A DNA stretch of 64,000 bases from an uncultured Chloroflexia bacterium (GCA_963737125.1 CAVTRL010000005.1:38870-102869), one strand, 5' to 3'; positions 7,564-50,124 are shown, counted from the first letter of the stretch. A program made the numbers and translations. Notes: generated by a model not told the origin, from the sequence alone.

Positions 7564-7579
7564 CGGCACCTGGATTGCA
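7564..7579 (+). promoter_or_regulatory. sigma54-like -24/-12 element
   Basis: CGGCAC-CTGGA-TTGCA (GG-N10-GC) upstream of the small hydrophilic ORF at 7700. Confidence 0.5.
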
Positions 7580-7699
7580 TGGCGCGATTCGTGCCGGACG
7601 ATCGTAAAACGGTACGAGTATATGCCGGATCCGGCCCTGCCCCTTAGCTGCCAGGTCGGCCCCGAGCCCCCAACCGGCGCCAGAAAACGGAGTAACAGC

Positions 7700-7918
7700 A
7701 TGGAACAAGGAAACAGCAAGACGAGCGAGAATACGACCTCACATGCCCCGGAAAATCCGGTCGAGGACGCTGGAACGCAATCGGACGTCACCCCCTCCCA
7801 ACAGCATTCTCTTCCAGACGGCGGGGACTTGAGCTCCGGTCAAGGAGTAGGCGGATCCAAGGTGGACCCATTGAGTACGGGTCCAAATGTCGAGGGAACG
7901 ATCGCGGGACGGAACTAA
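7700..7918 (+). CDS. Small hydrophilic, probably disordered protein (72 aa)
   Basis: GGAG RBS, ATG 7700, G/S/T/E/D-rich. Confidence 0.6.
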   Translation: MEQGNSKTSENTTSHAPENPVEDAGTQSDVTPSQQHSLPDGGDLSSGQGVGGSKVDPLSTGPNVEGTIAGRN

Positions 7919-8085
7919 AACCCGTCGGGTACCGCGTCGCGACGCATCTCAGGATCGGACGACGAAGGACCACTGCCTGCTTCGACATCGGTCGGTGACG
8001 TGTCCGACGCGGCGTCGGTTTCGTGAGCGGCGTGGTCCTGGGGATCGTTTTGCTCGTGCATTTCAATATCTCGTTCGTTCATCAT
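7915..8085 (-). CDS. Small acidic protein (56 aa), not in ORF track
   Basis: GAGGAG RBS at 8097-8102; MMNERDIEMHEQNDPQDHAAHETDAASDTSPTDVEAGSGPSSSDPEMRRDAVPDGF*. Confidence 0.5.
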   Translation of the reverse strand: MMNERDIEMHEQNDPQDHAAHETDAASDTSPTDVEAGSGPSSSDPEMRRDAVPDGF

Positions 8086-8152
8086 GCTGGCCAGTACTCC
8101 TCAAAGATCGGCGATGGAATGCACCTTCCGTCGGTGTGACTCTCATGCCCGA

Positions 8153-9854
8153 TCACGATGTGCTCCCGATACGTACTCTGGACCAATCATTTCCAACCGG
8201 CCAGACCGAACCATTGGCGGGCACGAGACCGTGGATTCGCGGCGGTATTATGTAGAGTCCGTTCACGTAGCCAACGCTGATCCAGTATCCGCCGGATAGA
8301 GCGATGCGTTGCGCTTCATCGTATAAGGTCGCTCGCTCCCTGGGGTTCTGTTCGATATCGGCCCGATCCACCAGGCGGTCGTAGCGCGCGCTGCGAAAAT
8401 TGCCGACATTGTCGGGTGCCGTCGATCGCATCTGATTCGAACACCAGTCGGAGGCATCGGGATAGTCGGCAAGCCACAGATTCTCGATGATGGTCTGTTG
8501 CTGTCCCGCGGTACTCATATTCTGTGACGTCGCTCCGAGCCACTTTTGTTGACTAATGGGCTCGATGGTCACATCGGCACCGATGGCCCTCAAGTCACCG
8601 GCGATCGCGTTATACTCGCGCACCACGTCGGGTGTGTTCTGGACGGCCATGCGCACGTTATGAAGCCCGCCGGCACATAATTCGCGTTCGCGGCGCGCAC
8701 GTGCCGGATCGTAGCTGGGAATACCCGGCTGCGCCCCAAAATATCCTGGAAGTCCGGGTGGGAGCATGTCATACAGCGGTCCCTGGGCGCCGCCCAGCAC
8801 GGTATCGTTCACCGCCTTTCGATTGATTGCGTACGCCACGGCCAGCCGGCAATGGATGTCGTTGAACGGTGCTATCCCGGCATTGGGCGTGATATAGTCG
8901 GTTTCCAATTCCGGCGCGCGCATGAACCCCTTCATCGATTTCGCCGCACCCATATCGGACGGCGGCACAACGGCGCCATCCACGGCTCCCGACTGATACG
9001 CTTTGAACACATCATCGGCCGTGGGAAATATCGGAGCGTGCATCGTAATACGCGGCTTCGGACCGTAATAGTAGGGATTAGCAACGAGATTGATCGCGGG
9101 CTCGGTCCCACGGGCGTAAAACGAATCGACCGTAGGTTTGCTGTTTCTACATTTGAATTCGAACGGTCCGGCTCCTACGGAGCCGGTACACGCGTTGGTG
9201 AGATACGCTCCTGCCGGTTTTCCGGTCATGGTACGCGGATCGAGAATGTCTGCCACGGGTCCCGCCAGCGCGGTCAAGAACACCGCTACCGGTTTGTCTA
9301 GAGTCATGCGCACAGAGTTGTTTCCCACCGCCATAACTCCGGGTAGACGGGTGGTCCGGCCGCTGTTGAACGCATCTGCTCCCTTGAGATGCCCCAGGTC
9401 GGTGAGCGCGTCGAACGACCGCGTAGCGGGCAGTAGAGCACGGCGTATACTCCACACCACGGCAGCGGGAGTTACCTTATCGCCGTTACTGAACCGAGCG
9501 TTGGGGCGCAGCGAGAACGTATAAACACGTCCTTTGTCGGTCACCGCCCATCTGCCGGCGAGGTCGCCGACGACGTGCAGACTGGGATACGACAGCTTCA
9601 CAAGATTGGCATTGACAAGAGACACGATATTGAGGGCGGCGGTCCCGGTGGCCACGGCCGGGTCGAGTGAATCGGGCCACGCTTCTCCATAGCCCGCCCA
9701 CCAATTCAGCGTGGTGGAGGGCCGTTGAGCTGGTGCCTGTTGAAGTACTCTTCGTCAGCGCGGAGTGAGAACTGCCTCCACATCCGGCGGCGAACGTTGC
9801 AAGAAGGACACCGACCGCTAGCCAGCTTGTTTTACCCGTTCCAAGGCTTACCAT
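8153..9854 (-). CDS. OppA-like (family 5) ABC substrate-binding lipoprotein, frameshifted at ~9712-9757
   Basis: Lipobox LATFAAG-C in one frame; DSLDPA, YTFSLR, GAGPF, RLAVAYAINR, WLADYPDA in the next frame. Confidence 0.8.
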
Positions 9855-10029
9855 ACCCATCCCCTCTGCCGGTCGCGGTGGCGGTCTCGTGCCACGGCAC
9901 GCGTTTCGGCGCTCCCCGAGGGCTTTATCATACGCGGCGAACTCGGTCCTGGACGAGCGGAACGTATCCCTCACCACCTGCCGGTGGTCCCAGAATGTAT
10001 CGCGGATACATGCGGGTCCGGCCCGTTGT

Positions 10030-10515
10030 TTACGTCGGCGCTACGTCGTTGTTGACAACTACCATCGAATCACCGATTTTCAGCACAGCGGACGCAGGGA
10101 CGGAATGTTCATCTTTACGAAACTTGTCCAGAAAGCTGCCACTCAGCAGGTACTGGGTCACCACTCCGTGTTCGAAATCGACGTCGAGATCGGAAACTGT
10201 TCCCACTTCGTGTCCATGCTCGGTCATCATGCGTGCGCCGATAACCTTACTGCCTGTCGTGCTGTCGTCGAATTCGCGGAACTTTTTCTCGTCGTTCATG
10301 CGACTGGCGTCCTGGAGGGTCACAGCGTCCAGGCCAATCGACAGAACATCATCGAGAAGTACAGCCTCTCCCTTCGTAAATAATCCTGCGCGTCGTACTC
10401 GTAGTCCCAGTACCTTGCCGGATGACGGATCGAGCACAATATCTTCGACGGTTCCTAATTTTTCGGCGTCCGCGACGCTGACGACCGGCTGGTTCCTCAC
10501 ATCGGATAGTTTCAA
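10030..10515 (-). CDS. Tandem PRC-barrel domain protein
   Basis: Two repeats of G-x-V-x-D-(I/L) PRC pattern; TTG start after GGAGGA. Confidence 0.85.
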   Translation of the reverse strand: MKLSDVRNQPVVSVADAEKLGTVEDIVLDPSSGKVLGLRVRRAGLFTKGEAVLLDDVLSIGLDAVTLQDASRMNDEKKFREFDDSTTGSKVIGARMMTEHGHEVGTVSDLDVDFEHGVVTQYLLSGSFLDKFRKDEHSVPASAVLKIGDSMVVVNNDVAPT

Positions 10516-10516
10516 A

Positions 10517-14488: not shown

Positions 14489-14532
14489 CCAACGTTGGTG
14501 AGCTACGTGAGTTGACCTGAACTGCGGGCTAC

Positions 14533-15285
14533 TTATGAATTTCCGTTCTGATCGACGACTGCGCCCGACGGGTCATCCACTTCGATCACTTCGGTGCGCA
14601 CGTCTCCTTCGACGGTCTCCTGTTCGACGTAGTCCGTCTTTTTCACGCGGAGTATTTCCCGCACCACGGTCTTCTTGACAAGGACTTCTTCTAAAACCGG
14701 CACCTCCACGACATCTCCGACCTCTCGAACGGGCGCCTCGAGGCCGGCCGGGACTTCGTCGCCAACTCGCAATCCACGCTGTGACTCGTCGATGACCTGG
14801 GCCTGTGCCGTGGGGGATACACTGTCCGTGTCCTCCGTGTCAGTTTCCGGCGATTCATCGGTGTCCTGAGGAACATTGGACTGTGCCTGCGGGGACGCAT
14901 CGGCGTCCGGAACCGCCACCGGCTCCGCTTCCGGTGATTCATCGCTGCCCTGCGCCGCCACCCCAGAGGAATCAGCGGACCCTTCATCGGATCTAGCGGC
15001 ATAGAAAGTCGAAACGCCGTCGAGGGCGACGGATTCCAGCGTATCGCTGGCTGGAACATCGGGAGACGCCTCGACCGTAGTCTTGTCGTACGGTACTTGC
15101 AACTGCCCGTTATTGGTGAGTGACGCGCCTTCCACCGGAATGAGTCGATGCTTGGCAAACAGGCTACCAATCTTTACCGAGACGTAGCGAGGAACGTTTG
15201 AGTCGTCCAGATAGGTTCGTTCTACCTTGCCGACCTGCTCGCCCGTGGCGTCAACCACGTCGACGCCATCATAATCCTCCGTCAC
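14533..15285 (-). CDS. PRC-barrel plus DUF2382 (YsnF/AvaK-like) acidic protein
   Basis: N-terminal PRC barrel (VVDATGEQVGKV, VPYDK), C-terminal VPVLEEVLVKKTVVRE. Confidence 0.8.
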   Translation of the reverse strand: MTEDYDGVDVVDATGEQVGKVERTYLDDSNVPRYVSVKIGSLFAKHRLIPVEGASLTNNGQLQVPYDKTTVEASPDVPASDTLESVALDGVSTFYAARSDEGSADSSGVAAQGSDESPEAEPVAVPDADASPQAQSNVPQDTDESPETDTEDTDSVSPTAQAQVIDESQRGLRVGDEVPAGLEAPVREVGDVVEVPVLEEVLVKKTVVREILRVKKTDYVEQETVEGDVRTEVIEVDDPSGAVVDQNGNS

Positions 15286-16010
15286 AAGATCACCCCCGCG
15301 TCGCGGTCGATGTCCCGATGGTACCGCTCGCCGGCCCTGCCGCCAAGTACGGCGCCCACCAACATGATCACCAGCGCAATCGCAAGCGCAACGACTCCGG
15401 CGGTCGTGAAGGTCGATGAATTGAACTTGAGGTGGAGCTGCGACGCCACGTTGAATTTGCTTCCCAGGATGGCGCCCGCAATGGCTAGCACAGCCGCGAC
15501 CACAACGGTCCAGATGACCACGCCTATACCGTTCTTCACGCCGTCATAGCGCGTCATGCGTCCTGCTGTATACCCGCCTATGAAGTAGGCCAGCAAGAGG
15601 CCTATGAGTGAGGCAACGGCGGCTCCGAGGCCGATGGTCTGCGTCGTGGACGACACCGCGTGCCCCACCTTGGGCAACGGTGCTCCTACCTGGTATCCCA
15701 CACCACCCGCGACCGCCGCGATGATGCCGAGGAAGAGGATGGTGAAAAAGGTAGCCACCGCGAATCCAATGAAGTCAGAACCCCAGTAGAAGCCACCGTA
15801 GCGGGCTCGCAGTTCGGCTTGACGATTCGCTCGAATAGAGGAGATGCTGCGGACAACGTTCGGAGACGAGTCCGACTGCGCCGCTGGCTCAGTGGTCACG
15901 ACGGTTGAGTCGCCGGCGGGCTGTTCCGATCCTATGGCGACCGGCGATTCCTCGCTGCCGTCGTCGCTATTCTGCGTTGATACTCCGTTGGGTTGCGTTG
16001 GCCTGGCCAT
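15282..16010 (-). CDS. Four-TM membrane protein (YrzE/TIGR04086-like)
   Basis: RYGGFYWGSDFIG, AYFIGGYTAGRM, GAVLGGRAGERYH. Confidence 0.7.
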   Translation of the reverse strand: MARPTQPNGVSTQNSDDGSEESPVAIGSEQPAGDSTVVTTEPAAQSDSSPNVVRSISSIRANRQAELRARYGGFYWGSDFIGFAVATFFTILFLGIIAAVAGGVGYQVGAPLPKVGHAVSSTTQTIGLGAAVASLIGLLLAYFIGGYTAGRMTRYDGVKNGIGVVIWTVVVAAVLAIAGAILGSKFNVASQLHLKFNSSTFTTAGVVALAIALVIMLVGAVLGGRAGERYHRDIDRDAGVIL

Positions 16011-16029
16011 GGTATCCCTCCTTGACAAA

Positions 16030-16092: not shown

Positions 16093-16932
16093 CTAGTACG
16101 AGGAATTTCCGGTGGAATCGGCATTGCTACCCTCGTAATTGGAGGCGGCGCCGGTCGCAACTCCACTGGTGTCGTCGTCAGTTTCGACCTCTTCGCGCCG
16201 TACGTCGGCACCTACATTTTCGGTGTCCGTGGTGACCGACTTGTTCAGCCGAACCTGTTCGGTGGCCCGGGTCGTCGTCGAGGCAACCGCCTCTTCACGC
16301 ATCACCGGAACCTCGATCTCCTCTTCCTGGAACGCGGTGCCATCGGTCGCATCGCTGGTCGCGGGTACCCGCTCGATCTCGACCTCTTCCCGCCGCAAAT
16401 CCACCGGGACTTCCTGGTGCTCGGTGCGGACGACTTTCCGCAATCGCACCCGACCGGCCTCGACCGGCCGCGTTTCCGCCTGCAGTTCTTCCTCATGAAG
16501 CGTTACTGCTTGATCGGTGTCGTTGTCGGCAGTGTACGTATCACCACTGGTATCACCGGTTGCGTAATCCGACGTTGTATCCTGACCGGACTGCAATCCA
16601 GATGGGCTGGCAGCGGTTGAGCGCCCCGTGCCGTAATAGCTGTATATCTCCTCTTCCTGGTCCGGGCTCAGTTCGGCATCTCCATCAAAAGACGGTGCGC
16701 CCTTGATCTGATCCTCACTGAACGGCACTTGAATGGCGCCATCGGAGATCTGGGCATCCGACACCGGGATTATGTGGGTCTTGCCCATGAACCATCCCGT
16801 CTTGACGGCCACGAATTCCAGCTCCGAGGTGGCATCGTCAACCCAGACGTTGTCCACCGAGCCGATTTTGTTGCCGCTTGAATCGAGTACGTCACTTCCA
16901 AAAACTTGTGCTGCATCTTCTTCGCTGGTCAT
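16093..16932 (-). CDS. PRC-barrel plus DUF2382 (YsnF/AvaK) protein
   Basis: VLDSSGNKIGSV, VKTGWF, IKGAP, LHEEEL...GRVRLRK, LRREEVEIER. Confidence 0.9.
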   Translation of the reverse strand: MTSEEDAAQVFGSDVLDSSGNKIGSVDNVWVDDATSELEFVAVKTGWFMGKTHIIPVSDAQISDGAIQVPFSEDQIKGAPSFDGDAELSPDQEEEIYSYYGTGRSTAASPSGLQSGQDTTSDYATGDTSGDTYTADNDTDQAVTLHEEELQAETRPVEAGRVRLRKVVRTEHQEVPVDLRREEVEIERVPATSDATDGTAFQEEEIEVPVMREEAVASTTTRATEQVRLNKSVTTDTENVGADVRREEVETDDDTSGVATGAASNYEGSNADSTGNSSY

Positions 16933-16996: not shown

Positions 16997-17012
16997 TGCA
17001 AAAGGTGTGCCA
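16997..17012 (-). promoter_or_regulatory. sigma54-like -24/-12 promoter (consensus match)
   Basis: TGGCAC-ACCTT-TTGCA, 64 nt upstream of ATG 16932. Confidence 0.7.
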
Positions 17013-17053: not shown

Positions 17054-18187
17054 CTACGAGGATGTGAGGCCCTGCTGCTGGGCGGCATCACTCGCGGCGT
17101 CTTTGGCGGCTCCCACCGCCTGCTGTGCGACTGACTGCACCTGCTGAGCCTTTTCCGAAACAGTCTGCTGTGCCTGCTGCACAACGTCGTCCCGGGTCTC
17201 GCCGAGCAGTTCGTTTTCCTTGTCGGTTTCAGGAATCGAAAGTCCGATGGCCGCGCCAAGTGCGAGGGAGACCACGCCTACCGCCAGCGGATTGCTTTGG
17301 AGCGACTGCTGGAACGCACTCTGCGCGCGCTGGGCTCCGTACTGCGCATTGGAGGCGAGCTGGCCTGCGGTATCCTGAACGGTTTCCGCCGCCTGTCCGG
17401 CAGTGGATCCCACGCTCGACGCCACGTCGCTCACCTTGTTCTGCGCCTGGCCGGCAAGATCGCCCACTTTATCTTGTGTCTTACTGACGCGATCGGAGAC
17501 CGACGACTGGCCGTCTCCGGCCTGGTAATTGGCCGAGTTGGAGGCGGCGTAGTAGCCGGAGTTGCCCGGGTTATATCCGGCCGGATACCCGTCCGAGCGA
17601 TCGGCGTAGTATTGCGTGGAGCTGCCGCCCTTGTTCCGGCTCATAAATAGCCAGCCCAACCCGATGCCGGCGATAGCGGCTGGAACTGGATTTCCCTTGA
17701 TGGTGTCCAACAAATTGGAACCGAATCCCTTTGCACTACTTCCGGCGTTACTGACCACATCAGTGGCCGCGTTGCCTGCATTGCTTACCATTTCCTGTGC
17801 CTTTCCTACCGTCGCCTCTTTAACGGTATCTTTCGCCTGCTGAGCGATGTTGGCTGGGCTCAGCTTTTCTTGAATGGCGTCAATCGTCGAGCTCAACTCG
17901 GAACGAGTCTGCTCAATCTGAGCGCGCGACGCCTCGAGTTCGTCCTCGCTATAGTCGTCCCCGTCGCCGTACGTGTCCGACTCTCCGGGCATCCCCGTTG
18001 GATCGATTTCCGTCGAGGTATATGCCGCGACGTACGCCGGTCCGCCTCCCAGTGGACTGCCGGCTAAGCCCGGTGCAACGTAGGCCGGGGTCCCTTCGAG
18101 AGTGCTTCCGTCTCCGAACCCGGCGTCATCGGAGAATGTATCGGCTGCAAAGCCAGAATCTGTTACCTCGTTTGATTCTTTGCCCAT
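17054..18187 (-). CDS. DUF3618 domain protein with LEA-like repeats
   Basis: RAQIEQTRSELSSTIDAIQEKLSP, NPVPAAIAGIGLGWL, NPLAVG...PETDKE. Confidence 0.85.
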   Translation of the reverse strand: MGKESNEVTDSGFAADTFSDDAGFGDGSTLEGTPAYVAPGLAGSPLGGGPAYVAAYTSTEIDPTGMPGESDTYGDGDDYSEDELEASRAQIEQTRSELSSTIDAIQEKLSPANIAQQAKDTVKEATVGKAQEMVSNAGNAATDVVSNAGSSAKGFGSNLLDTIKGNPVPAAIAGIGLGWLFMSRNKGGSSTQYYADRSDGYPAGYNPGNSGYYAASNSANYQAGDGQSSVSDRVSKTQDKVGDLAGQAQNKVSDVASSVGSTAGQAAETVQDTAGQLASNAQYGAQRAQSAFQQSLQSNPLAVGVVSLALGAAIGLSIPETDKENELLGETRDDVVQQAQQTVSEKAQQVQSVAQQAVGAAKDAASDAAQQQGLTSS

Positions 18188-18600
18188 TGGGCGTCCTCCT
18201 GAATGCTCTGAATTGTCTGCGTCGGCGCTAGATTCCCGTTACGTAACGCGGTGAGCCCATTTCGCACGAGTACCGCCCCTACCGCGGAGACGACGACTCC
18301 GACGATGAGCGCCGCCAGCCACCAGGTGACACCCAACTGCGCGAGTGCGATAACTACCATGGCAAGTAAGGTCAGAAATCCCGCGTATGCGACGAGCGCT
18401 CCGGCGGCGATGAAGCCGACATCTTTGCCGACCTCAGTCGCCTTATGAGTGAGTTCGGTCTTGGCGAGGTCAACCTCTTGACGCACCAGAGTGGTCGTTT
18501 CCCGCGATAACTCAGAGAAGAGCTCACCGAGTGAGCGGTCCTCCTTGCCCGCGGACGGTGCCCCGGACCTCGTTTCTATCTGATCAGACGGACGAGCCAT
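18163..18600 (-). CDS. Holin superfamily III-like (YqjE-type) membrane protein
   Basis: RSLGELF...LVRQEVDLAKTE, two TM helices, PTQTIQSIQED. Confidence 0.85.
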   Translation of the reverse strand: MARPSDQIETRSGAPSAGKEDRSLGELFSELSRETTTLVRQEVDLAKTELTHKATEVGKDVGFIAAGALVAYAGFLTLLAMVVIALAQLGVTWWLAALIVGVVVSAVGAVLVRNGLTALRNGNLAPTQTIQSIQEDAQWAKNQTR

Positions 18601-19282
18601 CAGTCGTGTCTCCTTCGGCGTCGAACACCGTTGCATCCGGATATTCAATCTCGTCAACTACCACAACTTCCGATGTCGCGTTATAGGCCGGGGATACCGA
18701 CTCGAAAGAGTTGCCGGCGTAGGTGTTCGAAGACGATGCGTACTCCGATCCACCTGCATAGCTGCCGCCGGCAGGCAACGCGGGGGTGTAGCTACTTCCA
18801 TATCCGTAGCTGCTACCGTAGTCGCTCTGGGATGTGTCGGGACGCGGAGTCGATGCCTTGAGGAACCGCGCGGCGGCCAGACCGAGCGCAAACGCTCCAC
18901 CCAGGAAGAGGGTCGAATTCCGGCGCGCGTAGTCCTCGACATCGCGCACGAGCTCGCGTACCGGCGTCGACTCCAGGTAGCTGGCAAATTCATCTACCTT
19001 CGTGCCGGCATTACTCGGAAAGTCTACAATCGGCCCTTGCGTGGATTTTCCCAGGTTTTCACTGGTTTGGTGTAACGCCGAGGCAACAAGCCTCAACCCC
19101 TGCGAAGCAGTCTGCTTCTGGGACTCAGCGTACGATGTGGCACTCTGCTTCGCATTGTCGGCAACCTCGCCAGCCGTCTGCTGGGTCTGCTGAAGCGCCT
19201 GCTGAGTTCCCTGTTTTACCTGTTCGGTGATCACGCTCCCGGTTCCGCCATCTCCGGGTGAGTTTCCCTGACTGCTGTCCAT
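18584..19282 (-). CDS. Stress-cluster hypothetical protein (DUF883/ElaB-like C-terminal anchor)
   Basis: Q/A-rich helices, DVEDYARRNSTLFLGGAFALGLAAARFLKAS. Confidence 0.75.
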   Translation of the reverse strand: MDSSQGNSPGDGGTGSVITEQVKQGTQQALQQTQQTAGEVADNAKQSATSYAESQKQTASQGLRLVASALHQTSENLGKSTQGPIVDFPSNAGTKVDEFASYLESTPVRELVRDVEDYARRNSTLFLGGAFALGLAAARFLKASTPRPDTSQSDYGSSYGYGSSYTPALPAGGSYAGGSEYASSSNTYAGNSFESVSPAYNATSEVVVVDEIEYPDATVFDAEGDTTDGSSV

Positions 19283-19344: not shown

Positions 19345-19360
19345 CGCATATTCCATGCCA
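19345..19360 (-). promoter_or_regulatory. sigma54-like -24/-12 element
   Basis: TGGCAT-GGAAT-ATGCG (GG-N10-GC), 62 nt upstream of ATG 19282. Confidence 0.5.
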
Positions 19361-23462: not shown

Positions 23463-24005
23463 ATGGAAACGACACACCGCACCCGACTGACGGCAGGCGA
23501 ACGGCGAGAGGAAATTCTCAATGCCGCCGTGTCCGAGTTTGCCTTGAAAGGCTTGCATGGGACCTCCACCGAAACCATCGCGCACCGCGTCGGTATCTCG
23601 CAGCCGTACCTCTTCCGGTTGTTCGGTACGAAAAGAGGGTTGTTTCTAGCAGCGGTCGAGCGAAATTTCGATCGGGTGAGTCAAACTTTTCGTCTGGCGG
23701 CAGAATCGAATCCCCAGAATCCACTGATGGCGATGGGGCTCGCCTACAAAGCACTTCTGACACGGCGCGAAGACTTGCTGCTGCAGATGCAGGCGTACGT
23801 CGCGTGCGTCGATCCGGAGATACGCGCTGTCGTGCGACGGCGCTTCACCGAGCTCTACGGGCTTGCACAGGAAGTGAGCGGTGAGAACGAAGACGCGGTA
23901 CGTGGTTTCTTCGCAAGCGGAATGCTCTTAAACGTGGCCGCCGCGATGGATCTTCCCGCTCTGGTAGACAGTGAAAGTTGGGCGGAGCACTGTAGCCAAA
24001 AATAA
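23463..24005 (+). CDS. TetR/AcrR family transcriptional regulator
   Basis: RREEILNAAVSEFALKGLHGTSTETIAHRVGISQPYLFRLFGTK HTH. Confidence 0.92.
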   Translation: METTHRTRLTAGERREEILNAAVSEFALKGLHGTSTETIAHRVGISQPYLFRLFGTKRGLFLAAVERNFDRVSQTFRLAAESNPQNPLMAMGLAYKALLTRREDLLLQMQAYVACVDPEIRAVVRRRFTELYGLAQEVSGENEDAVRGFFASGMLLNVAAAMDLPALVDSESWAEHCSQK

Positions 24006-24069
24006 AATCCAGCTCATTTTTTATTTATCAGATTTAGATAGTGACCAGTCACACAGTAAGGAAGAACGA

Positions 24070-25488
24070 GTGAAAATATCAGCCAGATGGTGGACCTTCG
24101 CAGTTGTCTCGATAGCGCTCTTTATGTCAATGCTCGACAACCTCGTGGTGATCACCGCGCTGCCCGCGATCAAACGAGCCCTGGGAGCCTCCGTTGGCGA
24201 CCTAGAGTGGACCGTCAACGCGTACACGCTGGCCTTTGCGGTGCTGATGATGACGGGCTCGGCGTTGGGCGACCGCTACGGACGCAAACGCATTTTCCTG
24301 TTAGGCGTCGGCATTTTTACCATCGGTTCTGCTTCCGCCGCGCTGAGCGATACATCGGGCCACCTGTTACTGGCTCGGGCCGTGCAGGGAGTTGGTGCGG
24401 CCTTTCTCACGCCTCTCACGCTGACCATCCTGGCGCGCGTATTCCCACCCGAGCAACGAGCCGCGGTGATCGGCCTGTGGGCCGGTGTTTCAGGCCTCGG
24501 TCTCGCTATCGGTCCTCTGGTAGGTGGAGCGATCGTCAACGGCATCGCTTGGAACGCCATTTTCTGGATTAATATCCCGTTTGGCGCGCTGGTCCTCGTC
24601 CTCGGGTTTCTCCGTCTGGAAGAGTCGCGAGGTGATCGGCTGCCGCTCGATTTGCCTGGCATCATACTTGCCGGCGTCGGACTTTTCGGCATCACCTTCG
24701 GATTGATTCGCGGCAATGCGCTGGGATGGGGAAGCGCCACGATTCTCTTAGCGCTGGCTGGTGGGGTCGTCCTTCTGATGGCATTTGTGTTGTGGGAGCG
24801 GCGTGCCACCGCACCAATGCTGCGGCTCGATCTGTTCGCGATCCGTAGTTTTTCGGTGTCAAACGCTGTCGGCTATCTGATGAGCGCCGGCATGTTCGGC
24901 TCCATTTTCCTGCTGACCTTGTTCATCCAACAGATTCAGGGTGCATCGCCACTACAGGCCGGTCTCAAGACGATGCCGTGGACCGGAACGATCATGATCG
25001 TGGCCCCTCTCGCCGGGCTGCTGTCCGCTCGGATCGGCTCGCGGCCGGTCGTTGTCGCCGGGATGGCGCTTCAGACCGGCGCGCTGCTCTGGATTGGCGC
25101 CGTGTCGTCGATCACGGTCCCATACCTCAATCTGTTACCGGCTTTTATCCTGGGCGGGATCGGAATGGGCCTGACATTTGCCCCGCTCTCGTCGGCTGTT
25201 ATCAACGCGGTGTCCGGTAATCTCGAGGGTCAAGCGTCGGGAGCGTACAATTCGATTCGAGAGCTAGGTGGCGTATTTGGCATCGCTATCCTGGGAGCGG
25301 TCTTCCAGCACGTCGCCTCGGCCCCAACCGCAGCCTCGTTCATGAGCGGATTCCACACCGCGGTATTCGCCGGCGCTGCCATCGTCTTCGTAGGCACCAT
25401 GTTCGCCGTGATTTTACCGGCTGGCCGCTCCGCGGAAACACGCGTACCGGCAGTCGGCAGCGTGCAGCCCGAACTCGAGCCAGCGTAG
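24070..25488 (+). CDS. DHA2 (EmrB/QacA) MFS efflux transporter
   Basis: LDNLVVITALP, WTVNAY, GDRYGRKR, GPLVGG, FWINIP; about 14 TM segments. Confidence 0.92.
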   Translation: MKISARWWTFAVVSIALFMSMLDNLVVITALPAIKRALGASVGDLEWTVNAYTLAFAVLMMTGSALGDRYGRKRIFLLGVGIFTIGSASAALSDTSGHLLLARAVQGVGAAFLTPLTLTILARVFPPEQRAAVIGLWAGVSGLGLAIGPLVGGAIVNGIAWNAIFWINIPFGALVLVLGFLRLEESRGDRLPLDLPGIILAGVGLFGITFGLIRGNALGWGSATILLALAGGVVLLMAFVLWERRATAPMLRLDLFAIRSFSVSNAVGYLMSAGMFGSIFLLTLFIQQIQGASPLQAGLKTMPWTGTIMIVAPLAGLLSARIGSRPVVVAGMALQTGALLWIGAVSSITVPYLNLLPAFILGGIGMGLTFAPLSSAVINAVSGNLEGQASGAYNSIRELGGVFGIAILGAVFQHVASAPTAASFMSGFHTAVFAGAAIVFVGTMFAVILPAGRSAETRVPAVGSVQPELEPA

Positions 25489-26550: not shown

Positions 26551-27573
26551 CTACCGCAGAGCGGCGGATAGTTCTCTTCCCGCCGTCTGTCGCACCCGAG
26601 GCAATACGTCACGACCATAGTCGCGAAGGAATCCTTTTTGGTCCGGGCCGGCGCAGTGAAAGAAGAAGTGCGTGAATCCCAGGTCGATGTGTTTTTGAAT
26701 GTACGCAACGTGCTCAGAGGGATCGGAGGAGACGCACATCTTGGACTTCATGATGTCATCACCCACGACTTCGCCGTTTTGCGCCGACATCTGCGGGGTG
26801 TAAATTTTCTGATCGAACAGCGCTGGAACAAACGTGCCGGCCCAGTACTCGCGCATACACTGCAGTGCCGATTCCTCATCGTCCGTGTACGCAACGTTCA
26901 ATTCAATAAGTCTCGGCATCGTGGCTGGGTCCTTGCCCGCTTCGCGCGCGCCCGCCTCGAAGTTCTCGATGATGCCCTCATAGATCTCAGGATCCTGGCC
27001 CCCGACGGTGAACAGTCCATCGCCGTGTTTCCCGGCGAAATGCGCGCTATTCGGCACCAGCGTGGAGATGTAGATTGGCGGGGTGCGGTCCGATCTCGTC
27101 CACATGCGCGCCTTGCGCGTCTGGTAGTAGGTACCGCCAAAGGTCACCTCGTCACCGGTCCAGAGCGCACGTATGAGGTCGATGGCCTCCGCCATGCGCG
27201 CCTGCCGCTCGTCGTACTCCGGCCATTCGCCGGTTGCGGCGAACTCATTGAGGGCTTCGCCGGTGCCGATACCGAGATAGGCGCGGCCTGGCGCCATACA
27301 CTCCAGCGTCATCGCCGCCTGCGCGACGATGGCGGGGTGGTAACGCAGAATCGGACAGGTAACGCCGGTTCCCAGGTGAATGGATTCGGTACGGGCGGCA
27401 ACCGCTCCCAACCAGGTCCAGGCAAAGCTTGCCTGGCCTACTTCACTCCACGGCGCGAAATGATCGCTGCAGTCAATCGATTCAAAACCGGCCTCTTCGG
27501 CGGCAATCGCGTAGTCCAGTAATTCGAGGGGCGGATACTGTTCCGGTCCTGCTTTCCAACCAAGCTGCAACAC
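26551..27573 (-). CDS. F420-dependent LLM-class oxidoreductase (G6PDH family, TIGR03557-like)
   Basis: EQY, SDHFAPW, GTGVTCP, YHPAIVAQA, GTGEALNE; GTG after AAGGAG. Confidence 0.88.
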   Translation of the reverse strand: MLQLGWKAGPEQYPPLELLDYAIAAEEAGFESIDCSDHFAPWSEVGQASFAWTWLGAVAARTESIHLGTGVTCPILRYHPAIVAQAAMTLECMAPGRAYLGIGTGEALNEFAATGEWPEYDERQARMAEAIDLIRALWTGDEVTFGGTYYQTRKARMWTRSDRTPPIYISTLVPNSAHFAGKHGDGLFTVGGQDPEIYEGIIENFEAGAREAGKDPATMPRLIELNVAYTDDEESALQCMREYWAGTFVPALFDQKIYTPQMSAQNGEVVGDDIMKSKMCVSSDPSEHVAYIQKHIDLGFTHFFFHCAGPDQKGFLRDYGRDVLPRVRQTAGRELSAALR

Positions 27574-27639: not shown

Positions 27640-27655
27640 TGCAAGATGCAGGCCG
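27640..27655 (-). promoter_or_regulatory. sigma54-like -24/-12 element
   Basis: CGGCCT-GCATC-TTGCA (GG-N10-GC), 66 nt upstream of GTG 27573. Confidence 0.5.
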
Positions 27656-27684: not shown

Positions 27685-27915
27685 CTAAACGATGCAGCCG
27701 CGCCCCTGCCAGCCAATCTGCAGCGGCTTCCCCTCTTCGACGATCACCGGCACAGTCCGGTCGCCGCCGGTCAGATCGAGCAGGTGCTTGCGCGCTTCCG
27801 GGTCGGCGTCGACGTCGAACTCTACAAAATCGACTCCGCGCCATTCGAGATCTTCTCTCGCCGCCGTGCTAAACTCGCAGCCCCGTGAAGTGTACAGCTC
27901 GATCGGTTTAGACAT
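27685..27915 (-). CDS. Uxx-star family glutaredoxin-like protein, Cys form
   Basis: CEFS motif, TVPVIV, ends GWQGRG-C-I-V-stop. Confidence 0.75.
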   Translation of the reverse strand: MSKPIELYTSRGCEFSTAAREDLEWRGVDFVEFDVDADPEARKHLLDLTGGDRTVPVIVEEGKPLQIGWQGRGCIV

Positions 27916-28138
27916 TGCATTTCACCCCTTCCCACCGGAGATTCACGTCGGTGTCAGTGTCCAATTGCTGGTAGAGACATCGGGCGCCTTCATATTTCAT
28001 TTCAAATATAAAGGCGATACACTTGAATACGGATTGTCCATGCGGATCGAACCGGGCACGTCGCCAGAATATGAAGAAAACCCGGCGTCTTCACGACGGA
28101 GCGGAAGGAGAGACGGTAATCGTGGCCTCCGCCAGATC

Positions 28139-30589
28139 ATGTTGATTCGTTCCCTTTCATCCCAGGGAGGAGAGAGCGCGAGCCTCCGTGCAACGAGTGA
28201 GCGCTGGGAAATTGCGATTAGCGGCATCGTGCAGGGAGTGGGTTTTCGGCCGTTCGTCTATTCGCTGGCTCGACGGCATGTGCTTACCGGCTTCGTTCGG
28301 AACGATGCATTCGGCGTGCGTATAGAGGTGGAGGGGCCGCTGGCCCGCCTCCAAACGTTCGTACGAGGGATCGAATCGGACGCGCCGCCGCTGGCGGACA
28401 TCGAGTCTGTTACCTGGAAACCAATCGGCCTGCAGGGTGACCGAGAGTTCCGTATCGAGCATTCCACGCGGGATGAACACACCGCCCGAACCCTCGTCTC
28501 CCCCGATGTCGCCACCTGTCTCGATTGCTTGCAAGAAGTGGAAGATCCGGCTGACCGCCGATATCGTTACCCGTTCACCAACTGCACCAATTGTGGTCCG
28601 CGCTTTACCATCACATACGCGGTTCCCTACGACCGTGCGAACACGACAATGTCCGCATTTACCATGTGCCCGGCATGCCAGTTGGAATATGACGACCCAG
28701 GCAATCGCCGCTTTCACGCCCAGCCGAACGCGTGCAAAGTCTGCGGCCCGACGGTCCGCCTGGTGCATCGTAATGGTACGGACGCTCTTCACGGTGAGCG
28801 CGATGCGGTGGCGTCGGCCGCAACCGTACTACGATCCGGCGCTATCCTGGCAGTCAAAGGGTTGGGCGGGTATCATCTCGCCTGTAATCCATTCGACAGT
28901 GCGGCGGTGCAGACACTCAGAGATAGAAAGGCCCGGGAGGATCGACCGTTCGCGATCATGGCCGCCAACCTGGATGAAGTACACGCGCTTGTCCGCACGT
29001 CAGAGGAGGAAGACGCGCTCCTGGCATCCAGTGCTCGTCCCATCGTGATACTTGAAGTGGTGGATCGAGGTTCTTCCACCCCGGTAGCACAAGGAGTAGC
29101 ACCCCGGCAGTCGACCCTCGGCGTCATGCTGCCGTATACACCGCTGCACCACCTGCTCCTGAAGGATTTCGGCGGTCCGCTGGTTATGACAAGCGCGAAT
29201 CGAAGTAGCGAGCCGATGGTGTTTCGGGATCAGGAAGCGTTTGAACGTTTAGGCGGCATCGCCGATTACTTCCTGGTCCACGATCGAACCATTCATCGCC
29301 CATGCGATGACAGTGTAATGCGGATCATAGGTCCACGGTGGGGAGATGCCGCGGGGCCGTCGCCGCTCCGGAGATCTCGGGGATATGCACCCGCGCCGCT
29401 GAAGACGAATTATCAATTTACGGTTGCCACACTCGGCTGCGGGAGTCATCTCAAGAACACCTTCTGCCTGGCGCGAGAGCGCCATATTTTCATGAGTCCG
29501 CACATCGGCGACCTCGACAACTATGAAACGCTTCAGTCATATAAGGAGGGCATCGCGCATCTCAGCGCATTGTTCGACGTTCAGCCCAAGCTCATCGCGT
29601 GCGATCTGCATCCGGATTACGCGTCGACCCAGTACGCGAATGATTTAGCGGAGGATGGCCTCGAGCTCATCTCCATCCAACACCACCACGCACACGTGGC
29701 GAGCTGCATCGTGGACAACAATTGGTCGCCGACGTGCGAGATCATCGGCGTGGCGTTCGATGGCACCGGTTATGGGCCGGACAGTACGATCTGGGGTGGA
29801 GAGTTTTTCCAGGGAAGCATCGAAGCGGGCTTCCGCCGGAGAGCCCATCTGGCCTATGCGCCCCTCCCAGGAGGCGAAGCCGCAATTCGCGAACCGTGGC
29901 GCGCGGCAGTCGCCTTTCTGGCGACGCTGTATCCGGAGGATACGGTGTCTAGCCTGCCGTTGCCGTGCGTCCAGGGCAGCGATCCATCAACACTGCGAAT
30001 CTTGTATAAACTGGCCAAAGGTGGACGAGAGTTGTCTGGAGTTGTACCTCAGACCTCGAGCGCCGGACGGCTGTTCGACGTGGTCGCTGCTCTCCTGGGG
30101 GTGAACGGCAGCCGGCGCACCACGTACGAAGGACAGGCGGCCATCGAGCTGGAGCTTCTGGCCACGGGCCCGACAGCCTCGGCCTACCCTCTCAGCCTGC
30201 GCGAAGGCGAGGATGCGTGGGTAGTAGAGACTCGACAACTGCTCACGGATATCCTCTGCGATGTTTTGGCCGGCCGGCCGCACGGCGAAATCGCCGCGCG
30301 TTTCCACCGCACCATAGCCAATATCATCGTGCGGACCTGCCTTTGCATACGAGCCGACGGTGGAGTAAACGCGGTGGCGCTGTCGGGTGGCACATTTCAA
30401 AACACGCTGCTTTTGCGCCAGGTCGTCCCGCTGCTCCAACACGAGGGTTTTTCTGTCGGATTGCACCGTCGCTTGCCCGCCAACGACGGAGGTCTGTCCA
30501 TAGGTCAGGCGGTACTCGCTCATAGTATGTTCCGGCAACGGAACGGACAGGAGAAGGCGGATGTGTCTTGCCATACCGGGGAGAATTGA
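28139..30589 (+). CDS. hypF: Carbamoyltransferase HypF
   Basis: [11 protein letters not shown], CxxC zinc fingers (NCTNCGPRF), [27 protein letters not shown]; start uncertain. Confidence 0.95.
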
Positions 30590-46835: not shown

Positions 46836-46970
46836 TTCATAGACACCAGGGCTTGCATCGTCCGAGCGAGCGCTTTATGAATCCAGGGCGGAAACGCGCC
46901 TCGAAAGCCTGGCCACAATCACTCTCCAGCTCACAGCTGCTGCACCGAAGTAGAAAGCAACGGCAGGCGG

Positions 46971-47757
46971 CTATGTGGCTCCCTGCTTCACGGCCCAACC
47001 AATGTAGCTACCGCACGTCAGTCGAGTCTCGGTGAAGACGGCTGCCCGGCCGAACTCTCCGAAGCCAATCGTGCCACAGTTCAGACGGCGCACGAGGCGA
47101 ACGAGCGTCAAGGGATTCGCCTTGGGGCGGATGCCGGTAAGACCGCGTGGAACGAGATCGTAGTGTAAGAAATACTCGGCTAGCTCATTCGGCCTGATGA
47201 ACCTCTCCCACACATGAAAATGGGTCGGCACGAATCTCGACCAGGTCCACTCCTGAAGTAGTTTGATGGCGATGATCTTGCTCAAGAAGGTGCGGTTGAT
47301 CGTATCGAAGAGGTACAGCCCGCCCGGTTTAAGCACCCGCGCGGCCTCGGCGATCGAACGATCGAGATCTCGGACATGTTCGAGCACATCACAGCAGTAG
47401 ACAAGGTCAAAGGACGCATCGCGAAAGGGTAATGCCTCTGCTTCTCCGCGGCAATACCCGATGTCCAGGCCAGAGTCGCGCGCATGAGCACGCGCGGTTT
47501 CGAGGGAGGTCGCGGATGGATCGATGCCGGTCACCTTCAATCCCAGACGTGAGAACTCCTCGGCCAGCAAGCCGCCACCACAGCCAATGTCAAGCGCGGT
47601 CTTTCCCGGGAGGTCAAGATCGACGGCTTGCATGGCGCGGACGCAGTAAGCCAAGTCGTACCGGATTCAAAGCATGTCGCAGCACCGAGAGCATCTCGTT
47701 TTCGTCCCACCAGATGTCTCCGGGCCGGTTGTAGATCTCGTTATCGACGCTTGCCAT
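46971..47757 (-). CDS. ubiG: UbiG-like O-methyltransferase, frameshifted at ~47655
   Basis: WWD...LNPVR in one frame; LDIGCGGGLL, CCDVLEHV, DTINRT, FIRP in the next; one extra base in CGACTTGGCT. Confidence 0.75.
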
Positions 47758-47834
47758 GAAGTCCGGCTCTGCTTCTTTGTAACCCAGACTCGTACGGGTC
47801 ATCATAGAACACGGTGTTGCGCGGGAGGTCTGGC

Positions 47835-48035
47835 ATGCGTTGGGTACGATTGATTGGTGGAGTCTTGGTCACGCTGGTGGGTTTGATCTGGATCCTGCAG
47901 GGTCTAAACGTGATCGGCGGCTCCACTATGTCGGGGCACGGACAGTATGCCGTTCTTGGCGTGGTTGTCATGCTGATAGGGCTCTGGCTGCTGTGGGGAG
48001 CGATCGCGATTCGATCGAACGCACAGGTTCCGTAA
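47835..48035 (+). CDS. Small two-TM membrane protein
   Basis: GGGAGG RBS; GLIWILQGLNVIGGSTMSG. Confidence 0.7.
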   Translation: MRWVRLIGGVLVTLVGLIWILQGLNVIGGSTMSGHGQYAVLGVVVMLIGLWLLWGAIAIRSNAQVP

Positions 48036-48214
48036 GGCGCAAACACCAGGAGCCGTCGTAGTGTTGGTCGGATGTCCAGATCGATCGTCGCTTGGTCCGG
48101 AGGCGCCATCACGGCCGGCAAGTTACATCGCTGTTCGGCCGGCCGGCAGTGGTCGTCGCGGATCTGACCGTTGTGGTTCGAATCCAGCCTGAACGTCACA
48201 CTGCATAGGGCGCA

Positions 48215-49015
48215 CTACGAGACGATAACGGTCCCCACCATTCCCGGGTGGTACGAGCACTTGTAGTGGTACGTACCGCGCTTCTTGAACGTGTATCGTA
48301 GCGACGATCCGGGATTTAGCTTCTTATCGTACTTCCAACTCTTCGTCGTGCTCGTCACTGTATGCGATGCACTCGTCGCGTTCTTCCAGATGACGGTCTG
48401 TCCTACCCTGATCCTCGTCTTGACCGGGCCGAAAACATACCGACCGTTCACTTGTTTCGCGTGTACGGTTACGGATCCGGCAGGTGGCTGTGCTGTACTG
48501 GTCAGAAGCGGAACCGGCGTGGAGGTCGGTGCAACCAGGGTGGAAGTCGGTGGAATGGGTGTCGGAGCAGCTGGGGCCAGGGTAGGTGCCGGCACAACGG
48601 TTGTGGCCGGAACAGGCGTGGCGGTGGCTGGTACGGAACTCGCGGTGGGTGGAATCGGCGTGGACTGGGCCTGGACGATGATGGTCGCCATCATGTCGGG
48701 ATGCACCGCGCAGTGATACGTAAACGTCCCAGCTTGGTCGAATTTCACGCTCGCGGACCGGCCGGACTCTATAAGAGGTGTGTTCCAGGCGTTGGAGTCG
48801 CTGGTCGCGGTGTGAGCCACCGCGTCGGAATTGGTCCACGTTACTGTCGTACCGACGGACACGGTCAGCGTCGCGGGACTAAAGGCGAAATTCGCGATCG
48901 AAATAGAGGCGGTTTGTGCGCGGACGGCCGGTGCCGTGCGTACTCCAACGCTTCCGGCCACAAGTGCGGCCAGCAAGCCGAGCGTCCACGGACGCCACAG
49001 TACCCTGGAAATCAT
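48215..49015 (-). CDS. Secreted protein with two cupredoxin (plastocyanin/amicyanin-like) domains and a PT-rich linker
   Basis: Signal peptide; AHTAT...CAVHPDM and SHTVT...CSYHPGM type-1 Cu ligands. Confidence 0.88.
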   Translation of the reverse strand: MISRVLWRPWTLGLLAALVAGSVGVRTAPAVRAQTASISIANFAFSPATLTVSVGTTVTWTNSDAVAHTATSDSNAWNTPLIESGRSASVKFDQAGTFTYHCAVHPDMMATIIVQAQSTPIPPTASSVPATATPVPATTVVPAPTLAPAAPTPIPPTSTLVAPTSTPVPLLTSTAQPPAGSVTVHAKQVNGRYVFGPVKTRIRVGQTVIWKNATSASHTVTSTTKSWKYDKKLNPGSSLRYTFKKRGTYHYKCSYHPGMVGTVIVS

Positions 49016-49150
49016 GCGATCCTCCCCGTGATGACGTGTCACTTAGCAACAACATACGCGTCTTGGTTACACCTGACCCATAATCGGGCTTCACGCGCCA
49101 ATGTCACCACACATCGCCATCAACTGGCGTTCATCTTTTCGAGAATCATC

Positions 49151-49387
49151 TTGGACGACGGCTCCTGGGCAGTCATCAGTGTGACGGATCACGGCCCGGG
49201 TATCGAGTCGGAGATGCTCTCACGGGTCTTCGAGCGCTTCGCCACCGGGAATCGCTACGACGGGCTCGGACTCGGCCTCTATCTCTCCCACCGGATCGTG
49301 GAGGCACACGGCGGCACCCTCACCGTGGAATCGTCGGTCGGCACGGGAACCACCTTCTGGCTGGCCCTTCCCTGCCGAGAACGGTGA
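49151..49387 (+). pseudogene. Histidine kinase HATPase C-terminal fragment
   Basis: VTDHGPGI, VFERF, GLGLGL, HGG present; no H-box or N-box upstream. Confidence 0.75.
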
Positions 49388-49507
49388 TCGCCCCATACTC
49401 CACCCATCATCCGATCTCGGATCTGCCGGCGTTTCCCACGGGCGGACGGACGAAAGCTACGAGCCCACACAGCCATTGAGGCATGAACTTGCAGCAACTC
49501 CTCCGGG

Positions 49508-49984
49508 TCAGTCGTGTACCTTTCGCCCTCTGCATACCGCATCGTACGGGCTGCACTCGGCCTCACGAGCCTTCTGCTCCGACACGTTTGTAGACCCAGC
49601 CGCGCCGTGCGCCAGTGCGAACTCCACACATCGATACGCCTGATCGACCTCGAATGGCTTCACGAGCACTGCGGCGACATCCGCCAGTACTGATTCCGGG
49701 AGCGACTGCAGTGCCCACATGTCGCCGGAGCACATGACAACCGGCACATCGCGCGTCTTCGAGTGCTCCTTCAACGTCTGCAGCACTGTGATGCCCGCGC
49801 CATGCTGCGGCAGGTGAAGATCGAGAATCACAACATCTGGCCGCTTGGTTCCCGCAACAAGCAACGCGTCGCGAACTTCGTCACCGGTGCTCAGTGCTAC
49901 CGTATCCCATCCTCGATTCGCAAAAACATCACACATAAACTTCCGACTCACACTGTTGTCGTCGACAATCGCAACACACGTCAT
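49508..49984 (-). CDS. Single-domain (CheY-like) response regulator
   Basis: IVDDN, VILDLHLP, CSG, VKPF; GGGAGG RBS. Confidence 0.8.
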   Translation of the reverse strand: MTCVAIVDDNSVSRKFMCDVFANRGWDTVALSTGDEVRDALLVAGTKRPDVVILDLHLPQHGAGITVLQTLKEHSKTRDVPVVMCSGDMWALQSLPESVLADVAAVLVKPFEVDQAYRCVEFALAHGAAGSTNVSEQKAREAECSPYDAVCRGRKVHD

Positions 49985-50108
49985 CGCATACCCTCCCACA
50001 GGTTCCTTCACTGGTGTCGCCCGGACCCGGCCCAGCATCGGGCCGGCCATCGACGAGTACGGAAGCCCGGTACCGGATGCTCCTGAGAGGTGACACCAGT
50101 ATCGTCCT

Positions 50109-50124
50109 TGCAAGACGCATGCCG
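50109..50124 (-). promoter_or_regulatory. sigma54-like -24/-12 element
   Basis: CGGCAT-GCGTC-TTGCA upstream of the receiver gene. Confidence 0.55.

Follow-up and report, generated by a model that had tools for sequence, protein, structure and literature searches.

Is part of the stress response in a Chloroflexota lineage driven from sigma-54 promoters? The question is raised by a stretch of 64,000 nucleotides (nt), here called the window (G000:C5:38870-102869), which was taken from the genome of an uncultured soil Chloroflexota bacterium (G000). An earlier note on this DNA had pointed to five -24/-12 motifs of the GG-N10-GC type in front of stress genes, here numbered sites 1 to 5, and had proposed a dormancy or desiccation regulon run by an RpoN-like factor. 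Sigma-54 promoters are characterized by an invariant GG and an invariant GC spaced by 10 nt, embedded in a TGGCAC-N5-TTGCW-like consensus. To our knowledge, all general stress responses described so far employ factors of the sigma-70 family.

This paper describes the computational analysis of these motifs in the window, in the complete source genome, and in its relatives. The data indicate that sites 2, 3, and 4 are likely to be genuine RpoN promoters, as probably is site 5, and that they belong to a predicted regulon of approximately 25 to 45 promoters, which is conserved within the order and would be served by a single activator. The finding of stress genes behind conserved promoters of this class suggests that the lineage runs part of its stress response via a sigma factor that is not known to do so elsewhere. 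Moreover, a gene encoding an RpoD-like sigma factor was found among the predicted targets.

Genomes and search methods

The source genome comprises 4.14 Mb in 9 contigs, has a G+C content of 60%, and is 91% complete. Motifs were scored with a position weight matrix (PWM) and were searched in parallel with the fixed consensus TGGCAY-N5-TTGCW. Gaps were counted from the last base of the 16-mer to the start codon. Orthologues were sought in the order, represented by 16 genomes including G000, and the 400 nt upstream of each orthologue were scored. The survey for rpoN covered 40 relatives, and its counts include G004, an unpublished genome. The alignment of the regions upstream of the sigma gene contained 11 sequences; i.e., those of G000 and of 10 of its 11 family relatives (G004 was left out).

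Candidate promoters in the window and across the genome

All five 16-mers listed in the earlier note were recovered at their coordinates and on their strands (Table 1). Its count of three sites at a distance of 62-66 nt from the start codon is correct, since gaps of 64, 62, and 66 nt were measured for sites 2, 3, and 4, respectively; the gaps of sites 1 and 5 are 120 and 121 nt. Matches to GG-N10-GC occur in the window at chance level (952 versus 925 ± 28 in shuffled sequence), and the longer pattern YGGCAY-N5-TTGC was found 4 times where 0.77 matches are expected, a number that was reached in 1 of 100 shuffles. Site 2 matches the full sigma-54 consensus, sites 3, 4, and 5 have PWM scores of 15.2-17.2, and site 1 scores 4.4. 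Sites 2, 3, and 4 are considered sigma-54 promoters with high confidence, their dependence on sigma-54 being what we infer from the computed promoter matches and their conservation. Site 5 is a probable sigma-54 promoter on basis of its score of 16.5 and of the motifs scoring 16.7-19.9 that precede two other PF00072-confirmed receiver-only genes in G000 and one probable truncated gene without a Pfam match.

In the complete genome the consensus TGGCAY-N5-TTGCW has 20 matches, 13 of which are intergenic, although intergenic DNA accounts for only 15% of the sequence. Eleven matches point at a gene start within 200 nt, versus 0, 0, 1, 0, and 0 for control patterns with spacers N3, N4, N6, and N7 and for the reversed pattern; when at most one mismatch was allowed these numbers became 35 versus 10, 7, 10, 9, and 8. 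Likewise, the PWM at a threshold of at least 15 retrieved 40 oriented intergenic matches distributed over 9 contigs, while the reversed matrix and the matrices with the spacer shortened or extended by one position retrieved 1, 0, and 4, respectively. This oriented intergenic excess over the spacing and reversal controls bears out the genome-wide enrichment that the proposed regulon implied. A single alternative sigma factor would control many unlinked operons, including families of the protective type, and the number of functional promoters in G000 is estimated at 25-45, with about 40 predicted.

Pattern counts in the whole genomes of the 40 relatives amounted to 114 versus 60 (reversed) and 56 (N6) in the own family, and to 47 versus 37 and 37 in family f3, which lacks rpoN; such counts separate poorly because most matches are chance occurrences in coding DNA. 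The possibility that the TTGCA of the motif represents the -35 box of a sigma-70 promoter was rejected, as it lies far too close to the AT-rich stretch and as this would leave the invariant GG located 10 nt upstream, and its conservation, unexplained.

Three of the top motifs of the genome, with scores of 21.5, 24.6, and 22.8, are clustered in an AT-rich locus (L104:3300-4140, corresponding to G000:C1:311303-312140). One of these precedes an HTH-GAF histidine kinase gene and another a 63-amino acid (aa) open reading frame (ORF), while the best one, TGGCACGATACTTGCA (+), points into approximately 400 nt without a convincing ORF and could be driving a sigma-54-dependent small or antisense RNA.

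Conservation in relatives

The upstream regions of orthologous genes retain the motif for sites 2, 3, and 4, which confirms for these three sites the conservation that was anticipated. For ysnF, the gene behind site 2, a clear orthologue was identified in 5 family relatives, 4 of which (G002, G007, G005, and G008) have a motif with a PWM score of 13.3-21.2 at 58-179 nt upstream; no motif precedes the gene in G003, the 35%-identical gene of G004, or the paralogue of G000 itself. The ysnF-linked motif is present as well on contigs of two named Chloroflexota metagenome-assembled genomes, and the YsnF genes on Rubrobacter and Carnobacteriaceae contigs, included as negative controls, are without it. 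The site-3 gene is preceded by a motif (PWM 15.4-20.4) in 8 of 10 order relatives, or 8 of 9 when G004 is omitted, in both families and at protein identities of 27-53%. All three orthologues of the luciferase-like (LLM class) gene behind site 4 (63-67% identity) are preceded by GG-N10-GC in combination with CTTGC as the -12 element, at PWM scores of 12.7, 9.3, and 16.9, and none of its three paralogues (40-42% identity) is. The expected conservation was not obtained for site 1, for which no orthologue was found and the single distant homologue lacks the motif. The site-5 gene has no orthologue to compare; its best matches, at 34-35% identity, all lack the motif.

Beyond the window, the motif was found 36-73 nt upstream of the SRPBCC gene in 9 of 9 relatives and upstream of the Mn catalase gene in 2 of 2. 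Among the metagenomic relatives of the SRPBCC gene with sufficient upstream DNA, 5 of 70 scored at least 12, versus 1 of 70 on the opposite strand, and sigma-54 control of SRPBCC would therefore be specific for the lineage rather than a property of the gene family. Seven metagenomic SRPBCC relatives (L212, L216, L219, L221, L239, L247, and L274) display the variant TGGCGC-N5-CTTGC(A/T) at 34-50 nt before the start. This variant resembles the CGGCGC form found ahead of ysnF in G002, and TGGCGC may be a -24 element that is tolerated in related lineages.

Sigma-54 and its activator

The genome encodes a single RpoN with all three characteristic regions (PF00309, PF04963, and PF04552, representing the activator-interacting, core-binding, and DNA-binding domains), the translation of which contains the RpoN box ARRTVAKYR. 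The earlier note had stated that neither rpoN nor a gene for an enhancer-binding protein is located in the window, and indeed both were found on other contigs. Exactly one true enhancer-binding protein is encoded in G000, an NtrC-type protein with a receiver (REC) domain, a Sigma54_activat AAA+ domain, and a Fis-type helix-turn-helix (HTH_8); the remaining PF00158 matches are weak AAA+ matches only. The GAFTGA-type activator that had been looked for is thus present as to its REC-AAA+-HTH architecture, and departs from that type in its loop, as discussed below. Over five relatives, which belong to two families, the identity of the activator amounts to 70-91%, and exactly one activator was found per genome in 12 of the 15 order relatives, the three misses being genomes that are 81%, 58%, and 75% complete. 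RpoN itself was found in all genomes of the own family (11/11) and of the sister family (4/4), in no genome of another family of the same class (0/5), and with a patchy distribution elsewhere in the phylum. No -24/-12 motif was detected upstream of rpoN or of the activator gene.

Between its activator-interacting region and core-binding domain, RpoN (L001:1498-2901, minus strand) has a zinc-ribbon-like CxxC...CxxC insert at residues ~55-70. RpoN relatives in the protein atlas allowed placement at phylum level only, in the Chloroflexota. Two genomes of family f8, G025 and G037, contain TGGCAY-N5-TTGCW 16 times versus 2 and 16 times versus 5 in the reversed control, yet are without a Sigma54_DBD match, and G025 has one activator-like gene; in these genomes rpoN is either missed or divergent.

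An RpoD-like sigma gene as a predicted target

Three distinct RpoD-like sigma factors, of 421, 367, and 363 aa, are encoded in G000, and the 363-aa factor, which is of the group-2 type, is preceded by a -24/-12 motif. All 11 family orthologues retain this block (all 10 if G004 is omitted), which is the sole conserved island in the 11 aligned upstream regions. The motif is absent in the paralogue class of 52% identity (0/7) and ahead of the best matches in the sister family (0/4). An RpoD-like sigma gene that is predicted to be under the control of sigma-54 makes a two-tier cascade likely, a point that was not foreseen in the earlier note. None of the three RpoD-like factors reaches the NCBIfam SigBFG cut-off for a SigB/F/G-type sigma, in a search that did not enumerate the extracytoplasmic function sigmas. 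The gene for the 367-aa factor occurs in two identical copies, at G000:C1:2336743-2337846 and G000:C2:184682-185785, which had identical scores in every search; they result either from a genuine duplication or from a repeat in the assembly at the ends of contigs.

Genes behind the motif

The genes downstream of the top 40 motifs encode cytoplasmic proteins of the stress type (YsnF, a second PRC-barrel protein, SRPBCC, a DksA/TraR-type protein, Mn catalase, and a ferritin-like protein), oxidoreductases (SDR, Zn-dependent alcohol dehydrogenase (Zn-ADH), and aldo/keto reductase), and envelope or membrane functions (GT2, an MFS sugar transporter, BrkB/YihY, YkuD, phosphatidylserine decarboxylase, DUF5670, and an SPW protein, with sub-threshold matches to DedA/VTT and DUF1440). 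Signalling is represented by three receiver-only regulators and two GAF/PAS histidine kinases, and other products include DUF1259 and DUF5666 (neither of which has an assigned function) and a phosphodiesterase. Thirteen proteins, most of them small, have no Pfam match or only a weak sub-threshold one, and an NCBIfam search of ten small regulon proteins without family named none of them. The median length of the downstream products is 221 aa (48 genes with a motif of at least 16), versus 294 aa genome-wide (p = 0.013).

With respect to the stress families that were named beforehand, the one CsbD gene above the cut-off (motif 20.3, at 69 nt) and the one GlsB gene (motif 16.1) are both preceded by a motif; Usp, Hsp20, and ferritin/Dps, looked up in the same test, are not (see below). 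It is this gene content only that points to a function in general stress or dormancy. Families matching core SigB genes of Bacillus subtilis, which we take to be YsnF, CsbD, GT2, the MFS sugar transporter, SDR, Mn catalase, the DksA-type protein, and aldo/keto reductase, account for approximately 7 of the 40 downstream genes, versus 1 of 20 random genes (an aldo/keto reductase). The core set given in an excerpt of PMC7824861 includes ysnF, csbD, csbB, csbC, ydaD, yhdF, ydbD, yocK, yhdN, and yvgN.

Proposed mechanism and alternatives

The mechanism we propose starts with RNA polymerase containing the single sigma-54, which would bind at GG-N10-GC as a closed complex that would be opened by the sole NtrC-type activator of G000. 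The inducing signal would reach this activator through phosphorylation by a histidine kinase, and the two kinase genes with their own -24/-12 promoter are candidates for this role. Direct targets would for the most part be oxidoreductases and small proteins, either hydrophilic or located in the membrane, of the general-stress type (YsnF, CsbD, GlsB, SRPBCC, SDR, Mn catalase, the DksA-type protein, and aldo/keto reductase), along with single-domain response regulators. The RpoD-like sigma factor, itself a target, would probably drive a second tier, which may include stress genes without a -24/-12 motif. The reading we favour, and consider likely, is that of a conserved regulon of sigma-54 promoters served by this activator. 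A bolder reading, to which we give slightly less than even confidence, is that sigma-54 and its single, highly conserved G(S/A)FTSA activator form the master switch of general stress or dormancy in the order, firing about 40 promoters and the RpoD-like sigma gene.

The dormancy or desiccation regulon proposed in the earlier note thus finds agreement in the presence of rpoN and an activator, in the enrichment and conservation of the motif, and in the lack of a SigB/F-type factor among the RpoD-like sigmas, and meets disagreement in site 1, in the activator loop, and in the stress families that fall outside the regulon. The observations that weigh against a sigma-54 stress regulon concern both the machinery and the targets. 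In the activator loop, GSFTSA is found throughout the own family and GAFTSA throughout the sister family, with F and T kept and S instead of G as fifth residue. A search for an upstream activator site yielded no k-mer or dyad beyond multiple-testing expectation (48 promoter-upstream versus 1497 control regions), and no such site was seen upon footprinting of the 11 aligned sigma-gene upstream regions; the missing upstream sequence does not exclude function, because some known enhancer-binding proteins act without a specific DNA site. The motif is absent ahead of Usp (0/11), Hsp20 (0/1), and ferritin/Dps (0/1) genes, and of the DUF2382 paralogues (0/2), which leaves one of three DUF2382 genes with a motif. 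A ferritin-like gene and two DUF2382/YsnF paralogues are found together in a second stress cluster (G000:C3:148651-154209); the 1.5 kb ahead of this cluster contain no -24/-12 motif, and it presumably is under the control of another promoter type. Moreover, the excess of core SigB families among the downstream genes is not significant alone, and the enrichment ahead of stress genes is in this respect suggestive only.

Other reservations apply to the searches. When sequencing runs were searched for this sequence, no RNA run came up, and the single DNA run that did shared few of its words. At least one high PWM match, 222 nt before the gene for ribosomal protein S7, looks false-positive. When motifs in relatives G005 and G010 were followed to the downstream gene (30 of 34 matches), a homologue in G000 with a motif of at least 14 was reached from only 3 of the 17 intergenic motifs (a DksA-type protein, a 146-aa unknown protein, and YsnF), in a scan that is noisy because its choice of the downstream ORF is crude. 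The gene calls for G000 were made with a crude home-made caller (~3,600 genes, covering 84.5% of the genome), and the PWM scores are partly circular because the matrix was trained on intergenic motif matches of the same genome; the fixed-consensus test is independent of the trained matrix and free of this circularity.

In a GC-rich genome the five window motifs might be functionless chance occurrences of GG-N10-GC, as would agree with the unremarkable frequency of this core in the window, with the background score of site 1 and its position in a palindrome, and with the lack of conservation support for site 5. We give this reading hardly any credence, as sites 2-4 are kept, at the same distance, before orthologues that are only 27-67% identical in protein, which contradicts chance at these sites, and as the spacing and reversal controls returned 0-1 matches versus 11. 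Genuine sigma-54 promoters could also serve a narrower role, such as envelope remodelling or the response to a single cue, e.g., oxidative or carbonyl stress. Many targets are indeed membrane or envelope proteins (DUF5670, DedA/VTT-like, BrkB/YihY, SPW, DUF1440-like, GlsB, the YkuD L,D-transpeptidase, GT2, and phosphatidylserine decarboxylase), several are oxidoreductases (SDR, Zn-ADH, aldo/keto reductase, the LLM enzyme, and Mn catalase), and Usp, Hsp20, and Dps are outside the regulon. Francke et al. (2011) argue, in an excerpt of PMC3162934, that sigma-54 controls the cell exterior generally. It is nevertheless considered improbable: the cytoplasmic hallmark stress genes for YsnF, CsbD, SRPBCC, and the DksA-type protein carry conserved motifs and have no envelope role, the RpoD-like sigma gene as a target is more in keeping with a global switch than with one pathway, and a single activator for about 40 promoters speaks for a global programme.

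A different division of labour, in the manner of the RpoN-RpoS cascade of Borrelia, would have sigma-54 act only as a trigger, with the bulk of the stress response passing through the sigma-54-dependent RpoD-like sigma and the direct targets forming a minor branch. The -24/-12 block in all family orthologues of the sigma gene argues for this arrangement, as do the second ysnF/ferritin cluster and the Usp, Hsp20, and Dps genes, which lack the motif and need another promoter type. We regard it as rather unlikely, although not to the degree of the narrower role, since about 40 oriented motifs stand directly ahead of structural genes, several of them conserved in the order independently of the sigma gene, and since the best sigma matches in the sister family are without the motif, although the promoters of the site-3, SRPBCC, LLM, and catalase genes are retained there. 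The arrangement is compatible with the conserved sigma-54 regulon favoured above, and extends it.

Comparison with known systems

The SigB regulon of B. subtilis resembles the predicted regulon in gene content, which overlaps with the core set in the excerpt of PMC7824861 for the families that we equate with its genes. The two differ in that the unrelated sigma-54 class and -24/-12 promoters are found here instead of -35/-10 promoters, and in that control would be exerted by an ATP-driven enhancer-binding protein rather than by an anti-sigma partner switch. Moreover, Dps, as well as the stress families Usp and Hsp20, is outside the motif set here.

The Rrp2-RpoN-RpoS pathway of Borrelia burgdorferi resembles that of G000 in its single sigma-54 and its single activator of the REC-AAA+ type, and in that the gene for an alternative sigma of the RpoD family is preceded by a -24/-12 promoter. 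Sigma-54 in Borrelia acts mainly through rpoS, whereas in G000 about 40 structural-gene promoters are candidates for direct control. Regulation of Borrelia RpoS by RpoN is stated in an excerpt of PMC1976401. The systems further differ in phylum and lifestyle, and the conservation of the sigma-gene promoter described here extends over the own family, with no motif found for the sister family. Chlamydia has one sigma-54 and one NtrC-type activator (CtcC/AtoC), which control tens of genes, including late-stage genes, in connection with a persistence or developmental state. This minimal combination of one sigma-54 and one response regulator is similar to that of G000, while the gene sets are unrelated, Chlamydia is an obligate intracellular parasite, and a link to type III secretion is lacking here. 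Proteobacterial PspF/psp, RtcR/rtc, NorR, and ZraR are comparable in that their sigma-54 promoters are silent until an activator senses damage. Each of these activators controls one or a few operons and is one among many per genome, whereas in G000 a single activator would serve the whole regulon; this activator matches the PspF/RtcR/NorR/ZraR-type families below their cut-offs.

A full-text literature search, in which papers were judged mainly from the start of their abstracts, brought up no publication on a stress regulon of Chloroflexota under sigma-54, and the only statement found on sigma-54 in this phylum is its occurrence in 'some Chloroflexi' in the excerpt of PMC3162934. If the bolder reading is true, a function would be assigned to sigma-54 in Chloroflexota, and the same protective gene set (YsnF, CsbD, GlsB, Mn catalase, the DksA-type protein, and the like) would have been rewired onto a mechanistically different switch. 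The sigma-54 switch is activator-dependent, driven by ATP, and has no basal leak. The system would represent a further general-stress architecture beside SigB, RpoS, EcfG/PhyR, and the group-2 sigmas, and the only one to rely on promoters of a class without any activity before an ATPase has opened them. Being small, with one sigma-54, one activator, and no SigB-type factor, it would therefore offer a tractable model for the way in which uncultured soil Chloroflexota enter and leave a resistant state.

Annotation of the window and site 1

The features of the window sites and of the sigma-54-associated sigma gene are collected in Table 1.

Table 1. Positions of candidate promoters and associated genes (window coordinates unless a contig is given).
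Feature	Position	Strand	Details
Site 2, sigma-54 type -24/-12 promoter TGGCACACCTTTTGCA	16997..17012	-	64 nt before ysnF; PWM 20.3, genome rank 11
ysnF-type gene, 279 aa, PRC-barrel + DUF2382 (YsnF-AvaK)	16093..16932	-	ATG 16932; PF05239, PF09557, TIGR02271
Two genes 3' of ysnF, same strand	14533..16028	-	15282-16028, no family; 14533-15285, PRC-barrel (Pfam)
Site 3, sigma-54 type promoter TGGCATGGAATATGCG	19345..19360	-	62 nt before ATG 19282; PWM 17.2, rank 41
Site-3 gene, 232-aa Q/T/S-rich hydrophilic protein	18584..19282	-	Translation: one hydrophobic segment near residue 130
DUF3618 / apolipoprotein-like gene, between site-3 gene and site 2	17054..18187	-	PF12277
Site 4, sigma-54 type promoter CGGCCTGCATCTTGCA	27640..27655	-	66 nt before GTG 27573; PWM 15.2, rank 92
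Luciferase-like (LLM class) oxidoreductase gene	26551..27573	-	PF00296, E 1.3e-62
Site 5, candidate sigma-54 promoter CGGCATGCGTCTTGCA	50109..50124	-	121 nt before ATG 49987; PWM 16.5, rank 57
Single-domain response regulator (receiver only), 159 aa	49508..49987	-	PF00072
RpoD-like (group-2 type) sigma gene, 363 aa	C3:478614-479705		Motif GGCATGTATCTTGC / TGGCATGTATCTTGCG 69 nt upstream
Site 1, GG-N10-GC core CGGCACCTGGATTGCA	7564..7579	+	PWM 4.4, no better than background; 120 nt from start codon
Hydrophilic ORF 3' of site 1, 72 aa	7700..7918	+	ORF list; not called by crude gene finder

The ysnF gene and the two genes downstream of it probably form one transcription unit, as judged from their spacing only. 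The product of the site-3 gene is predicted to be a hydrophilic, membrane-anchored protein; it has no Pfam match, and the only NCBIfam match, to TatB_1, is far sub-threshold (18.5 bits versus a cut-off of 100). No PWM match of at least 10 was found between positions 18188 and 18583, and the DUF3618 gene is probably transcribed from site 3. Divergently from site 4 lies hypF (27692-30589, plus strand), which is directly followed by genes on the same strand. The longest ORF of hypF has approximately 170 residues ahead of the first domain match; its true start is therefore probably further downstream, which would leave more than 80 nt for the divergent region that hypF shares with site 4. One of the four exact matches to YGGCAY-N5-TTGC, at positions 24657-24671 (plus strand), is absent from the list in the earlier note; it falls inside an MFS transporter gene (23971-25488), has a PWM score of 7.8, and probably is a chance occurrence.

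Site 1 is located between a 212-aa minus-strand gene (6874-7512), which by eye resembles uracil phosphoribosyltransferase, a likeness that comes from no family search, and the doubtful 72-aa ORF, which is without Pfam or NCBIfam match and may not be a real gene. Folding of the site-1 leader was no better than that of shuffled sequences (z = -0.54), and an Rfam search of the whole window gave no match. The site falls within an imperfect palindrome, CCGGCAC...GTGCCGG (positions 7561-7595), with the inner pair GGATTGC/GCGATTC. Most likely, site 1 is a chance match inside this palindrome and is unsupported as a sigma-54 promoter; the palindrome itself could be an operator or a hairpin.

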